Source of the DNA: a virus
Taxonomy: Duplodnaviria > Caudoviricetes
Virus record (IMG/VR): IMGVR_UViG_3300011862_000001
Location: 1-64,000 of that record
Length of the DNA: 64,000 nucleotides
Strand: one strand, 5' to 3'
The notes under the pieces were generated by a model. That model was not told where the DNA came from, made no database searches, and was given only the letters and a program-made list of their open reading frames with translations. Of the stretch, positions 7,512 to 53,979 are shown one piece after another. Position 1 is the first letter of the stretch. Every line of letters begins with the position of its first letter. The position numbers and the translations under genes were made by a program.

Positions 7512-9409
7512 GTGGATCAATATTGCGGGTTGTTACAACAAATCCTGAACGTCGGTCACCCGAAGGCCGACCGTACCGGTACCGGGACGCTGTCCTGTTT
7601 TGGCGCACAGATGCGCTTTGATTTGCGTGACGGGTTTCCGATGGTCACCACCAAGAAACTGCACCTGCGCTCGATTATTCATGAGCTGTTGTGGTTCCTG
7701 AAAGGGGACACCAACACCCAGTACCTGAACGATAACGGCGTGACTATCTGGGACGAATGGAGACGTCCATATATCGGTTTTACAGATAAGGTTATTCGTA
7801 TCCCACGAGTTAAAAAAGAGTATGTCCCTTTTACCGGGACATTCCCTATATCTATCCCGACGTTCGATTCTGAAGTAGATAAGAAGTTAGCGTATGCGTG
7901 GCAGAAGATGATGCGGCGCTGTTACGATAAAACGGCACACAACTATCGTAGCTACGGCGAGAAAGGTACTAGCGTGGCGTTGCGTTGGCACAATGTGACC
8001 AATTTTGTTAATGACGTTAAAGAACTACAAAATTGGGTTTATAAAAACAAGAACTGGAATATGTTCGAACTCGACAAAGATTACTACGGTTCTAACCAGT
8101 ATTGTCCTGAAGGGTGCGTATGGCTCAGTAAGAAAGAAAACGTTCATCATGCGTGGGTACGTATCGTTAAAGGAGATGGTACTGATTACATCTGCCGGAC
8201 GTATAAACATGCAGCCGCGTTAACAGGGCTAAGTAAATCCTCCATCCACCGTTTTATTGAAAAAGGTATTACTCCGCACCTTAAAGGAAATAACCGGATC
8301 AGTGGTGTGAAAAATTGGCTTATGCATAAAGCCAACACCGAAGATTTCGTTTATCGTAACGCGATTCACGACGACGGTGACTTAGGCCCGGTTTACGGTA
8401 AGCAATGGCGGGACTGGGTCGGGCCAGACGGTAAACACCATGACCAGATTTCCAAGGTCATCGACCAGCTGCGTAACGACCCCGATAACCGCCGTATTAT
8501 CGTCAGTGCCTGGAACGTGGGTGAGTTAGACCAGATGGCGTTAGCGCCGTGTCATTCTTTCTTCCAGTTCTACACGCGTGAACTGTCACTCGATGAACGT
8601 CTGGGGTGGCAGGCTGAAAACGAACCTGACGCTTACCAGTTCTCTAAATGTGAAGAGTACGAAGACGATGAAGATAACCACGACGCATTGACCGCCGATG
8701 GTGTTCCGCGTCGTATGCTGTCTTGTCAGCTCTATCAGCGTAAACTAAGCTGCGCCTTCTAGGGGTGACCCTAGTCGAAAAACACTCCCTAATTGCTGGG
8801 ACACCTTAACGTCGTTTAAGCTACAACGTGACCGGTAACGGTGGGCGTGAATGCTAAAAAATTAAACGATTCATGGTCAATCAGCATCTAAAACTCCTTG
8901 AAATGTATTTTATCCTAACGGTTAGACTTTTAAATTCAAGGTTTGAAGTTCAACGACTAGAACGTGATTGTTCGTAGGGGACAAGTGTCCTCGAAATGGG
9001 AGAGCATCTGCGCAGCAGTTTCGCAGATGGTGATATAGTCTGATCTGCATGGCGACATGCAGCTGCGCGTAATGGCGCGGGGTGTGACTAACGACCACAC
9101 CTGAACATCTTGAGCGCAGATATGTTCCTTGGCGTGCCCTTTAACATCGCGTCTTACGCGCTGCTGATGCACATGGTCGCCCAACAGGTGAACATGGCCG
9201 TCGGCGATTTCGTCTGGACAGGTGGCGACGTACACATCTATTCCAATCACATGGAACAGGTGAAAGAGCAGCTCACCCGTAAACCGTTGCCGTTACCAAA
9301 GCTAGTTATCAAACGTAAACCGGAGTCTATCTTCGACTACCAGTTCGAAGACTTCGAGGTTGTAGATTATCAAAGCCATCCTGCGATTAAAGCGCCGGTT
9401 GCTATCTAA
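7512..9409 (+). CDS. thyA: thymidylate synthase; join(7512..8741,9113..9409), ~508 aa including an in-frame HNH insertion
   Basis: [38 protein letters not shown]|[28 protein letters not shown]; splicing restores YQRSAD. Confidence 0.95.
7761..8363 (+). mobile_element. HNH homing-endonuclease-like domain inserted in frame in thyA
   Basis: [10 protein letters not shown]...YGEKG..V..RW, ELDKD...[16 protein letters not shown], and C-terminal [19 protein letters not shown]; visibly more AT-rich than the flanks. Confidence 0.8.
8742..9112 (+). mobile_element. group I intron (ORF-less, 371 nt) in thyA
   Basis: Exon 1 ends in U (CGT); intron ends in G; IGS GCT-GCGC pairs with 3' exon AGC and 5' exon GCGT; P (AATTGCTGGGA), Q (AATCAGCA), R (GTTCAACGACTA), S (GATATAGTC) and P3 CTCCC/GGGAG all present. 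Confidence 0.93.
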
Positions 9410-51551: not shown

Positions 51552-52094
51552 ATGTTTATACTTCAAAAACACCACGACATTGTCACTAACCCGGCTTACC
51601 GTGATTGTACCGATGCCAAAGAATTCTTAGCACCGGTCAGTATCGCGCATCTCAATTACTTGAAAAAGCTGACGTACCTCGCGACGTTCGAAGACGGCAA
51701 ACCTGTCCACGTTCAGAAGCTGACTGCGGTTGAGAATACGGTGTATCTCTACGTCGATAAACTGACACCGAAGTTACTCAATGAACTGCGCATGGTGGTA
51801 CGTCCCGCAACACTTACCTATCCGGGGGCGTTCTTTGCGGTGTGTGAGCCGGAAGGACGTGACCCGTCGATGGAAGCAGTCACATTCGGTTTCACGGTGC
51901 CGCCAGAGCTGCGGTCTATCGAGAAACTGGCCCCGTTAATTGGTCACCCGAACGCGCAAATTATTCTCGAGGGGATAGCCTCGGTCACTAATCCGCAACA
52001 CGAATACGTGATGAACTGGAAGGGTGACGAAGAGATGGCGGAATACTTCCAACAACACGGTTTGAAATTCGTCAGTGCGTTTTACGCGCTGTAA
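51552..52094 (+). CDS. hypothetical protein
   Basis: 180-aa ORF with GAGGA SD. Confidence 0.75.
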   Translation: MFILQKHHDIVTNPAYRDCTDAKEFLAPVSIAHLNYLKKLTYLATFEDGKPVHVQKLTAVENTVYLYVDKLTPKLLNELRMVVRPATLTYPGAFFAVCEPEGRDPSMEAVTFGFTVPPELRSIEKLAPLIGHPNAQIILEGIASVTNPQHEYVMNWKGDEEMAEYFQQHGLKFVSAFYAL

Positions 52095-52100
52095 TAAATC

Positions 52101-52129
52101 GGGGAGCTTCGGCTCCCTGTTTTTTTTTG
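52101..52129 (+). terminator. terminator
   Basis: GGGAGC-TTCG-GCTCCC followed by a long T run. Confidence 0.85.
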
Positions 52130-52339
52130 TTTCAACCCGCATCACTGCTCATTTTTTGACCACTTTCTGTACACATTTTAACCAGTGAAAATAAGCAGCC
52201 AAAACGCGCTTTACAGCGGTCGTAACCGAACCCGGTACACTTGGGTTCCTTTCCCTAAATAACGTCTCCTGGGTACCGCTGCGTTCGAATTTGACGGTGT
52301 CCCGACCCCGACTTGCGACCCCCTCGTCATCGACTGGCG

Positions 52340-52780
52340 ACCGCCACGCCGATCAAACGTTGGGTACCGCTTCGCGGAACTGGGGATCTAAAACAGGGAA
52401 ATCTTGACAAACGAATCTTCGTGAGTTTGTCTGATTTGGTTGTTTTTTAACCAATAACCCCTAGCCAGCCTCCAGCTGGCTTAATTTACCCTTTTAAAAA
52501 TTTTCTTTTTAAAAAACAAAGACTTACAACCGATCTTACCCCTCCCCTCAGGGGGAGGGTAAAAAACTCTTCTATTAGTCGCGTGCGCGTGCGCACGCCA
52601 TTTCCTACAGGATCTTTTAAAAGAATTATATTATTATAATTATATATATCCCGTAGGGATATAATTATAAATATAAATATATATAACTCTTCGAGTTTAA
52701 ATATACTAACGCGCGTGATCCTTATTAAGAGATCGGATCTCGGATCGGCAGGTTGACCACCCCGATCGGGGGGGGGGGAA
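52340..52780. other. non-coding palindrome/AT-rich region, candidate replication origin or packaging site
   Basis: Several inverted repeats, a nearly pure A/T tract at ~52615-52705, nine GATC sites and a G11 run. Confidence 0.45.
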
Positions 52781-52782
52781 GT

Positions 52783-52811
52783 CCAATTACAGGTTTACCC
52801 AGTAGTATGCT
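52783..52811 (+). promoter_or_regulatory. putative middle promoter
   Basis: CCAATTAC-N15-TATG; near-identical copy at 53951-53979. Confidence 0.7.
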
Positions 52812-53075
52812 CGAAGGCACATGCACCACGTTGCCATCATCCAATCTCCCGGTTGACATCGGGCCGGGAGACTTTTTCGAGTCCGACTCACGCAGGGTGA
52901 GACGCGCTTACTGGCCAGTTGTGGTACAGGACCCGCAGTGCTGATCCCGCTGCGGGGATTTTTTCCCCAGGCGCTCATCCTGTTCAGGAATTGCTGTGTG
53001 TAGTTCGCCCCGTTCCTACCGGGGCGCTTTTTCGAGAGTCTTCCCCGAGGGTTGTCGACAAAGCGAAAAACCGTT
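52809..53075 (+). ncRNA. candidate structured ncRNA 1
   Basis: Own promoter motif, no credible ORF, multiple stems (GCTCGAAGG/TTTTCGAGT, TCTCCCGG/CCGGGAGA, CCGCAG/CTGCGG, CGCCCC/GGGGCG). Confidence 0.5.
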
Positions 53076-53109
53076 CAGCCTAACACTCAACGTGATTTTG
53101 TTTTAGTAT

Positions 53110-53410
53110 GTCCAGAGATTCAGGTTCCCGCCGGGCTTTCACCCCGGTCGGTACCGCGGTAGCCTCAGGGGCGTTCTGCCCCGCCGGACCGTCATCCGTC
53201 GCCATGGCCATGAACTTACGCGTGGCCCACGTCGGTTGGATGCTCCTGAGGCGCGACCGAATTCGGCGTTGCGTCGAAACGTTCCCTGCGTGGAGACACC
53301 GCAGGGGTGGGATTGTCCCGAAGGGGGTGATTGGTTGTTTATCTTGGCGGCTCGGAAAGACGAGAGGGGGATGCCTGCACGCTGTGAAGCAGTTCGGGCA
53401 CCGCTGTCGA
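53110..53410 (+). ncRNA. candidate structured ncRNA 2
   Basis: Own promoter motif (AAC-N15-TATG, 53089-53110); nested long-range stems and a GAGA tetraloop. Confidence 0.55.
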
Positions 53411-53464
53411 TATTTTTTACAGATTCCCCAGTTCATGTGTTCAAACCCAGCGAGGAATTTCAGC

Positions 53465-53965
53465 GTGACCACGATTGCATTCGACGGTAATACTCTGGCG
53501 GCGGACAGCCAGACAACCCAAGAGAACATTCGCCTCTCGAACTCTGCGGTAAAAATCTTCACCCGCGTCGCGCAGTCTGATGACTGGGCAATCGAGGGGA
53601 AACGCATCACCGCGTTTGGGGTGGCGGGTAACCTACACGCAGCCAACGATTTGCGCAGAGCGATGGAAACGTTTGCTGGCCACAAAGCCGGTGACCCGTT
53701 CGCCAAAGGCATCACCTTCGCGTTCATCGCGATTGCTGAAGACCGTACCGTGTTTGTTGGCGGGAAGTATTCTGACGATGACCGTTCGTGGGTCGTCGAA
53801 GCACAGGCACCGGTTGCTGTTGGTAGCGGTGGGGATTTCGCCATGGGTGCCATGGCCGCTGGGGCTACAGCCGAACAGGCTGTGGAGATTGCTGCTCGGT
53901 TCGATGTGAATACCGGCGGCCTTGTCCAGGCGATTAACCTCGCCAAAAGCCCAATTACAGATTAA
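53465..53965 (+). CDS. HslV/proteasome-beta-like Ntn threonine peptidase
   Basis: True start GTG 53465 (GAGG SD) gives MTTIAF...AADSQ...KI...GVAG...AVGSGG..AMGAM...D..TGG; own promoter TTTTAC-N15-TGTG at 53415-53439. Confidence 0.82.
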   Translation: MTTIAFDGNTLAADSQTTQENIRLSNSAVKIFTRVAQSDDWAIEGKRITAFGVAGNLHAANDLRRAMETFAGHKAGDPFAKGITFAFIAIAEDRTVFVGGKYSDDDRSWVVEAQAPVAVGSGGDFAMGAMAAGATAEQAVEIAARFDVNTGGLVQAINLAKSPITD

Positions 53966-53979
53966 CCCAGTGCTATGCT
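53951..53979 (+). promoter_or_regulatory. putative middle promoter for the tRNA cluster
   Basis: CCAATTAC-N15-TATG, repeat of 52783-52811. Confidence 0.7.

Follow-up and report, generated by a model that had tools for sequence, protein, structure and literature searches.

Locus and gene content

The DNA analysed here is a 64,000-nt stretch (the window) of a 236.9-kb virus record, and all coordinates are positions in this window. By blastn, the phage is a relative of the SPN3US-like jumbo phages that infect Erwinia, Salmonella, and E. coli. Our subject is a 1.37-kb stretch without credible open reading frames (ORFs), 52095–53464, which is flanked by a 180-aa ORF and the gene for an HslV/proteasome-like peptidase. 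Within it, the plus strand from about 53006 to 53410 is predicted to encode a conserved, multi-domain non-coding RNA (ncRNA) of the SPN3US-like jumbo phages. Judged from the comparisons given below, this is very probably a genuine structured ncRNA, and the RNA family is undescribed to the extent that Rfam and the searchable literature can tell. Three tRNA genes follow 3' of the RNA, namely tRNA-Trp (54014, ~600 nt away), tRNA-Cys (54600), and tRNA-Asn (56592).

The peptidase gene occupies 53465–53965 on the plus strand. It starts with GTG 53465 (MTTIAFDG, ribosome-binding site GAGGAA), in agreement with relatives whose gene opens ATG-ACC-AC. The name of the peptidase is taken from the annotation of relatives; Pfam gave no match at E ≤ 0.01, either for the peptidase or for its spurious N-terminal extension. 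Because the peptidase begins at GTG 53465, the 285-aa frame from ATG 53108 is an artefact, and the start annotation of the gene needs correcting. An earlier sequence-only reading of the window had described the segment as free of ORFs and the RNA as hidden in the ORF track behind this false extension; it was right on both points.

Predicted structure of the RNA

Homologues were collected as a set of 20 full-length sequences from six subgroups, to which L077, Kwan, and pEa_SNUABM_6 (SNU6) were added. The predicted core of the RNA, 53119–53406 (288 nt), is built from hairpin P2, a long branched domain P3, the optional hairpins P4 and P5, hairpin P6, a 29-nt motif with P7, and a long hairpin P8:

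53119–53125, plus strand: UUCAGGU, start of the core, invariant in 20 of 20 homologues and in L077
53123–53155, plus strand: hairpin P2, with a GGU/ACC base and a variable apex (20–109 nt in relatives), closed in 20 of 20 minimum free energy (MFE) folds
53154–53157, plus strand: CCGY, candidate long-range partner of RCGG 53347–53350, predicted by RNAalifold
53158–53258, plus strand: domain P3, with a GGY/RCC base, an internal loop of A versus GYG, a long stem, and an inner junction with two hairpins
53262–53278, plus strand: hairpin P4, fully paired (100%) in the homologues that have it, including GC to UG double changes; absent from Wellington-type homologues and L077
53284–53306, plus strand: hairpin P5, with a covarying stem; absent from Wellington-type homologues and L077
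53311–53332, plus strand: hairpin P6, whose 3' strand and next bases (53321–53333) are complementary to the 3' tail of 16S rRNA
53341–53369, plus strand: near-invariant 29-nt motif AUCUUGGCGG-CUCG-GAAAGA-CGAG-AGGGG, containing hairpin P7 (53351–53364)
53367–53405, plus strand: long irregular hairpin P8, capped by a GNGA tetraloop and containing a 2x2 internal loop and a conserved G-G mismatch; GCUG comes directly after it

Eight helices are maintained through many compensatory changes, which were found in at least 25 base pairs from P0 (a hairpin 5' of the core, described below) to P8. In the plain MAFFT alignment (A1; structure of 43 pairs), 93.5% of the cells were paired, compared to 85.4% in shuffled alignments (0 of 500 shuffles as high) and 34–46% with slid partners. 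Double changes were present in 17 pairs, and the covariation score was 0.347 versus 0.04–0.12. The corresponding values for the model-based alignment (A3) were 92.3% paired cells, double changes in 17 of 32 pairs, and a score of 0.373 versus 0.05–0.075. A covariance model of the 3' half matched 24 of the 24 loci searched (E ≤ 1e-18) and, afterwards, L077. G-U pairs account for ~16% of the paired cells in the A1 tally and would be A-C mismatches on the opposite strand; the structure therefore belongs to an RNA read from the plus strand. The evidence for structure is comparative, since the folding energy alone lies within chance (z = −1.15 for the plus strand; z = −0.21 for the minus strand). 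The discrete, multi-helix RNA of the sequence-only reading is thus conserved among relatives with covarying helices, and the compensatory changes that it had proposed to look for among homologues are present in many helices.

The GGY/RCC base of P3 is 100% paired (CG:10, UA:9, UG:1), and in the long stem formed by 53162–53169 and 53245–53252, 99.2% of the cells are paired with five of six pairs doubly changed. Of the two inner hairpins, the first (53185–53198) reads CGGA-CCGUCA-UCCG with CCGUCA as its loop, and the second (53206–53227) carries the conserved loop GAACUUAC. The MFE architecture of P3 is identical in all 20 homologues, and P2 and P3 range from 20 to 113 nt in length; the per-sequence folds of P2 and P3 are paired by construction, so that independent support comes from the alignment-based count. 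Pairs 4–9 from the base of P2 show three to four Watson–Crick types. In P5, the stem CCCUGCG/CGCAGGG is replaced by CCCAGCG/CGCUGGG, GUCUGCG/CGCAGAC, or GUACACG/CGUGUAC. P8 is 97–98% paired, and eight to nine of its 13–14 pairs are doubly changed. The CCGY/RCGG contact shows one-sided Y/R changes that are compatible with pairing in 19 of 20 sequences; it is tentative because it clashes with two basal pairs of P2.

The multibranch model of the sequence-only reading had five long-range pairings, of which one was confirmed, one is possible, two are contradicted by relatives, and one lacks support. The confirmed pairing, GCCTCAGG 53162 with CCTGAGGC 53245, is the main stem of P3 (99% paired, five of six pairs doubly changed). 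TCACCC 53139 with GGGTGA 53325 is possible, as phage Caitlin has UCACCU/AGGUGA, but it is not general. CGGTCG 53145 with CGACCG 53254 is supplanted by P2 and by the P3 base, where C-G to U-A covariation is perfect, and CATCC 53193 with GGATG 53238 gives way to the local hairpin at 53185–53198. The outermost pairing, CCAGAGAT 53112 with ATCTTGG 53341, is imperfect in this phage and its 5' partner is not conserved; the closing helix CCAGAGAU/AUCUUGG was rejected on the latter ground. An alternative closing helix, UUCA(G)/(C)UGAA, was also rejected, as it has only 2–3 bp in the window and its variation is uncompensated. The proposed separate 3' domain, 53347–53404, corresponds to P7 and P8 and is the best-supported part of the structure, with eight to nine covarying pairs. 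The proposed GNRA hairpin is P5; its stem covaries, but the GAGA tetraloop is confined to this phage, and the loop of relatives has 7–8 nt (UGUAGAA).

Conservation and phylogenetic range

The region was matched by blastn in 55 phage records of four genera. The RNA was found in every SPN3US-like jumbo phage examined, including Seoulvirus, Machinavirus, Erskinevirus, Wellingtonvirus, and metagenomic relatives, with one copy per genome, as also in the source genome. The homologue of SPN3US itself is located at ~610–1135 of JN641803. When IMG/VR, JGI metagenomes, and 185,579 prokaryote species (one genome each) were scanned for the motif, true matches were confined to the SPN3US-like clade and all others were due to chance; the 185,579 species gave a single chance match, which scored 8 bits with the covariance model. 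A blastn search of 5,426 E. coli genomes gave no match to the RNA, and a tblastn search with the upstream ORF, aimed at more distant phages, returned only six records.

The whole gap is 72–73% identical to those of the Erwinia phages Caitlin, ChrisDB, pEa_SNUABM_4, and pEa_SNUABM_9, and the identity to the same four phages rises to 77–78% over 53060–53450. The protein of the adjoining ORF is only 57% identical (tblastn), compared to the 72–78% DNA identity across the RNA gap to Caitlin. More distant genera keep only islands of similarity, the strongest of which is 53341–53369, the 29-nt motif. It is identical across Machinavirus, Erskinevirus, and Wellingtonvirus except for an A/G change in the P7 loop; Seoulvirus has one substitution (in UUGGCGG) and a 1-nt loop insertion. 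Insertions of 1–2 nt in the P7 loop occur in the SPN3US type, L054, and L077. The motif is found once in the window and once in the genome.

No described RNA family was recognized at the locus among those of Rfam 15, which include RNase P, tmRNA, signal recognition particle RNA, 6S, group I and II introns, GOLLD, ROOL, HEARO, riboswitches, and small ribozymes. The Rfam scan of the whole window at gathering thresholds identified three tRNAs and a group I intron elsewhere and nothing at the RNA, and a scan of 52000–53550 at E ≤ 10 gave noise only, with nothing on the plus strand of 53100–53410. ARAGORN found no tmRNA. The Rfam comparison suggested with the sequence-only reading has thus been made and yielded no family at either threshold, in line with its statement that signatures of RNase P, tmRNA, signal recognition particle RNA, and group I introns are missing.

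Borders of the RNA and putative promoters

Late promoters of phage phiKZ carry TATG with G as +1, and its middle promoters have AAanTTACc near −24 (PMC4666361). The following features bear on the ends of the RNA:

52783–52809, plus strand: TTAC-N15-TATG promoter-like motif, resembling the phiKZ middle element combined with TATG (PMC4666361); candidate primary start
52975–52998, plus strand: weaker ATC-N15-TGTG promoter-like motif just 5' of the GC-rich hairpin, a pattern match; putative alternative start
53006–53026, plus strand: GC-rich terminator-like hairpin, 73.5% of cells paired (MAFFT), with a stem sequence that varies by subgroup
53027–53063, plus strand: hairpin P0/P0a, in which the "terminator" U-run CUUUUUCGAG forms the 5' strand and pairs with GUCGACAAAG
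53077–53086, plus strand: conserved block AGCCUAACAC, possibly a promoter element near −26, possibly a segment of the RNA
53094–53110, plus strand: T-rich box ending in TATG (predicted +1 at G 53110), a possible internal late-type promoter by its TATG part only
53414–53439, plus strand: TTTTAC-N15-TGTG promoter-like motif for the next gene, a pattern match that marks the 3' limit of the RNA

The sequence-only reading had placed an RNA of ~300 nt between two promoters, with its own start at TATG 53107–53110. The downstream motif ending at 53439 is present, but the upstream TATG box is conserved in only three of the six subgroups (window-type, Erskinevirus, and Seoulvirus), and Huxley-type, Wellington-type, and L077 homologues lack it. 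Moreover, P0 lies 5' of the proposed start. P0 is closed in the MFE folds of 12 of 12 representatives and is 90.3% paired with six of 14 pairs doubly changed, compared to 43–55% paired in slid controls. The terminator scan lists the hairpin at 53006–53026; its U-run, however, is the 5' strand of P0. A length of ~300 nt therefore fits the core only, as conserved covarying structure extends 5' to at least 53006, and the claim of an own promoter at 53107–53110 is not supported. Since P0 precedes the proposed start and the TATG box is absent from three subgroups, the primary transcript probably starts further upstream. Based on the motifs listed, the primary start is probably at the TGTG motif ending at 52998 or at TTAC-N15-TATG ending at 52809, which most likely gives a transcription unit of ~400–600 nt, and the TATG at 53110 would at best be an additional internal start. 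The ATTGCTGTG box of the 52975–52998 motif is conserved in Caitlin, ChrisDB, SNU9, and SNU4, and Huxley-type relatives have a TTAC-type promoter motif ~20 nt 5' of the equivalent GC hairpin.

At the 3' side, P8 is followed by GCUG and 6–25 nt before any U-run, and the U-run belongs to the next promoter motif. TTAC-type motifs are present 3' of the RNA in about two-thirds of the relatives. The TTAC-N15-TATG motif before tRNA-Trp (53951–53977) is nearly identical to that at 52783–52809, before the upstream hairpins, which fits a single promoter class for the whole RNA island. A look-up of sequencing runs listed no RNA run that holds the sequence. Contigs of three wastewater "RNA?" runs, which are probably DNA, contained low-depth fragments of relatives and were uninformative on transcripts.

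Two further hairpins with U-runs lie between the TTAC-N15-TATG motif and the RNA (52809–53005). The unit of GC hairpin and CUUUUUCGAG at 52845–52881 recurs at 53006–53036, and Huxley-type phages have one such unit only. The repeat may reflect duplication of a 5' module within one RNA, or the hairpins may form a separate small RNA. An eleven-G run (52768–52778) is located directly 3' of CCCCGATC, just before the promoter-like motif that ends at 52809.

Natural variants

In pEa_SNUABM_6 (L012), the RNA lacks the part from P3 through the 5' half of P5; the internal deletion, at L012 ~1417–1569, lies between two UAGCCCC repeats. In Kwan, Wellington, and two metagenomic contigs, P6 and the invariant motif are separated by an HNH endonuclease gene. 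A degenerate motif copy and a hairpin with a U8-run precede the gene, and an intact 3' module follows it (Kwan L014 620–1572; L027, L019, and L052). The insertion is a putative mark left by a homing endonuclease aimed at the most conserved sequence. From the SNU6, HNH, and Wellington/L077 variants, the 3' module, comprising the Shine-Dalgarno (SD)-like strand, the motif with P7, and P8, therefore seems to be the indispensable part.

Complementarity to the 16S rRNA tail and a proposed mode of action

The sequence-only reading was correct in seeing a structured RNA but overlooked a hairpin-held complement of the 16S rRNA tail. Its consensus, GGAGGUGAUCCA, is formed by the 3' strand of P6 and the following bases, and covers the anti-SD sequence and bases upstream. 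With a 14-nt tail, the best duplex was found at the P6 3'-strand site in 20 of 20 homologues (dG −17.6 to −25.5). A 20-nt tail, taken from E. coli rrsH, formed 15–20 pairs in the 23 homologues (dG −21.9 to −31.6 kcal/mol), with the top duplex at the P6 site in 21 of them, including L077, Kwan, and SNU6; in the two exceptions, SPAsTU and SNU11, the top duplex lies elsewhere, at a nearby or downstream position. In the source genome, the site ranks about 5th of ~11,000 sequence windows on both strands. The SD-like strand varies only by transitions that keep the pairing with 16S rRNA (wobble-compatible) and by 1–2 nt bulges. Its partner in P6, the 5' strand, shows more variation and poorer pairing, and is an imperfect and weaker likeness of the 16S tail. 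No consistent second intramolecular partner of the SD-like strand was found, as the best sites differ among homologues. The only conserved UUG lies 9–16 nt from the SD-like strand, in a frame that is broken by 1-nt indels and has a varying stop position. The RNA thus combines complementarity well above that of ordinary ribosome-binding sites with the absence of a conserved start codon and ORF behind it, as in elements that stabilize mRNA through SD-like sequences (STAB-SD).

Because the complement is conserved, its variation keeps the 16S pairing, and no conserved ORF follows, we propose docking on the 30S subunit. The RNA would work as RNA on the host small ribosomal subunit, with the P6 3' strand and following bases serving as a gated "super-SD" that docks on the 30S. 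The pairing strand would be released from a built-in mimic of the 16S tail (the P6 5' strand), and the rest of the fold may sit on the subunit platform. As a result, 30S subunits might be sequestered, or re-programmed during infection. Transcription would probably be by phage RNA polymerases from TATG/TGTG-type promoters. We put the probability of the reading as a whole, a structured ncRNA that acts on the host 30S through pairing with the 16S tail, at about 0.4. A ribosome-directed mechanism as such is put forward tentatively, and the fully specified version, in which up to 20 nt of 16S-tail pairing by a strand freed from the P6 mimic leads to sequestered or re-programmed ribosomes, is doubtful.

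Several observations weigh against this proposal. The predicted folds keep the 16S-complementary strand mostly paired within P6; a purine-rich strand opposite the pyrimidine-rich P6 partner is bound to look SD-like to some degree; and the spacing between GGAG and UGAUCC varies by 0–2 nt. As phage mRNAs use SD sequences, wholesale titration of the anti-SD would harm the phage as well. Judging from the SNU6 and Kwan/Wellington variants, a large part of the fold may be dispensed with or may work in pieces. In seven relatives (SNU9, SNU4, Huxley, SNU10, L055, SNU29, and SPAsTU), an ORF with its own SD begins within ~25 nt after P8 and no promoter motif intervenes, so that the RNA is there also a 5' leader.

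If the RNA binds the 30S, it would represent a new route by which jumbo phages of the nucleus-forming type handle host translation, and if the proposal is true, an RNA-based takeover of translation, which has not been described for any phage. It might also illuminate why ornate RNAs accompany phage tRNAs. The hairpin-held, conserved 16S-tail complement adjoining a 29-nt invariant motif offers a concrete handle. Independently of its action, the RNA is a new class in phages of Salmonella, E. coli, and Erwinia that are well studied and open to genetics, and amber-mutant genetics is available for SPN3US.

A wider likeness to rRNA was also considered. The P7 loop CGGAAAGAC matches 23S rRNA at 2055 and ACGAGAGG the sarcin-ricin loop at 2657, GAACUUAC resembles 23S rRNA at 2069, and these motifs exist in E. 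coli rrlH. Mimicry of rRNA was dropped because the RNA shares 17 nine-mers with the rRNAs versus 15.4 expected, a number that 38% of shuffles reach. The sequence CGGUUGGAU-GCUCCU, which P3 carries on its 3' side (53233–53249) in this phage alone, shares a 9-mer with 16S rRNA 1524–1532 and resembles the 16S tail. This likeness is not conserved in relatives and is probably due to chance.

Alternative explanations

A possible alternative, though less likely than not, is a structured ncRNA in which the 16S complement is incidental to P6. The RNA would then act as an RNA-only or RNA–protein assembly (scaffold, multimer, or defence decoy) in the manner of GOLLD and ROOL. The setting, with a phage RNA directly upstream of a tRNA island, matches this view, and the 3' region is universal and the 5' region variable, as in GOLLD (bioRxiv 10.1101/2024.12.08.627333). 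The GNRA tetraloop and the invariant strands at the junctions point to tertiary packing, and palindromes at the RNA level (GAUC, GGUACC, and CCGAAUUCGG), as expected for self-association, occur in conserved elements. Against it, GOLLD, ROOL, and all other Rfam models are unmatched at E ≤ 10, ~300–600 nt is ROOL-sized or smaller, and the SD-like strand is sequence-constrained and pairs better with the 16S tail than with its own partner. Clearly less probable is a cis-acting leader or processing platform of a polycistronic "RNA island" transcript, affecting the stability, processing, or translation of the peptidase, small ORFs, or tRNAs. A hairpin-held SD-like strand is the usual form of a translational switch, and a leader would agree with the extension of P0 beyond the proposed start, with the lack of the TATG box in half of the subgroups, and with the promoterless ORFs behind P8 in the seven relatives. 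However, the next gene differs among phages (peptidase, unrelated small ORFs, or a 245-aa ORF), leaving no constant association with one regulated gene or pathway such as a leader or riboswitch would show. In about two-thirds of the genomes, a TTAC-type promoter lies between the RNA and the next gene, and the sole conserved start-like codon, 9–16 nt from the SD-like strand, opens a frame that 1-nt indels and a stop in the P8 loop interrupt.

That the RNA is a ribozyme, which would cleave itself or act on other RNA such as the neighboring tRNA precursors, is very unlikely. The complex fold with invariant junction strands, the adjoining tRNA genes, and the insertion of a homing HNH gene next to the invariant motif in Kwan and Wellington would suit a ribozyme, but none of the Rfam ribozyme families was matched, no catalytic core is recognizable, and in natural isolates P3–P5 is deletable or the RNA is split. 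Several 6-bp palindromes within the conserved blocks, together with an AT-rich tract 400 nt away (52599–52711) and the many GenBank records opened at this point, could indicate a replication origin, a packaging site, or a protein-binding array. The G-U intermediates are strand-specific, compensatory changes run from P0 to P8, and the GC skew shows no switch here, which leaves such a DNA-level element only a slight chance. Least credible is that the segment codes for protein, as an extension from ATG 53108, an 84-aa frame at 53236–53490, or a micro-ORF of ~20 codons from the UUG of the motif. Two plus-strand frames are open across the segment in this phage, a strong SD-like sequence lies 5' of a UUG, and small hypothetical ORFs are annotated here in some GenBank relatives. 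The variable sites show no codon periodicity (77/71/68 by codon position), each of the 15 indels that separate the window from Caitlin or ChrisDB is 1–2 nt long, the 29 invariant nucleotides contain zero synonymous changes, and Pfam gave no match. The annotated ORFs vary in frame and position among records. The micro-ORF was rejected, as its frame is shifted both in this window and in the SPN3US type, and where the P8 loop is GAGA, which supplies a stop, only 13 codons remain. Small "hypothetical protein" genes run across the RNA in the records of ChrisDB (gp287/288), Asesino (gp288/289), phiEaH2, Stratton (gp287/288), and Huxley (gp278); with their differing frames and positions, these overlapping proteins are probably spurious.

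Comparison with known RNAs

Large structured phage RNAs such as GOLLD and ROOL are, to our knowledge, among the least understood RNA classes; they occur by phage tRNA islands, and we know of none with an established function. GOLLD (RF01998) and ROOL (RF03087) are the closest in kind to the RNA described here, being phage-encoded, typically located by tRNA islands, and having an elaborate structure supported by covariation. Membership in either family fails because neither Rfam model matches, by sequence or structure, at E ≤ 10. The present RNA also differs in its hosts, which are Enterobacterales infected by jumbo phages, in its size (a core of ~290 nt, or ~400–600 nt with the upstream part, depending on the 5' end), and in its conserved complement of the 16S tail, a feature absent from the descriptions of GOLLD and ROOL. 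Ornate RNAs of the GOLLD and ROOL kind exceed ~500 nt and form homo-oligomeric cages. The 3' region of GOLLD is conserved and its 5' region variable, and GOLLD is reported to pull down ribosomes (bioRxiv 10.1101/2024.12.08.627333).

The SD-like strand shares with riboswitches and RNA thermometers that it is sequestered by an anti-SD-like strand (P6) 3' of a large structured domain. Unlike these platforms, no conserved regulated gene or start codon lies at a working distance, a promoter often intervenes, and the known aptamers in Rfam are unmatched. STAB-SD elements, as in the cryIIIA mRNA of Bacillus, are SD-like sequences that bind the 30S without a translation start and act as short, 5'-proximal mRNA stabilizers. 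The RNA described here is similar in having a strong complement of the 16S 3' end without a usable conserved start codon behind it, whereas its element is 13–20 nt long, is sequestered in a hairpin within the 3' third of a large fold, and stands beside the 29-nt motif. The stable RNAs of the phage T4 tRNA cluster (species 1 and 2, or RNA C and D) are likewise co-located and co-transcribed with phage tRNAs. They are much smaller, and we know of no sequence relation between them and this RNA.

Other features of the window

The AT-rich tract at 52599–52711 has an inverted repeat inside it, and its A+T content reaches at least 84% over 50 nt. The 237-kb genome has just one other tract of this sort, and part of the present one is conserved in all SPN3US-like phages. 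Its role may be that of an origin, an unwinding element, or a control site; the GC skew, lacking a switch at the RNA locus, gives no support for an origin at the tract. The group I intron detected elsewhere in the window is located at 8732–9062 (Rfam RF00028), and its score of 58.5 bits exceeds the gathering score.

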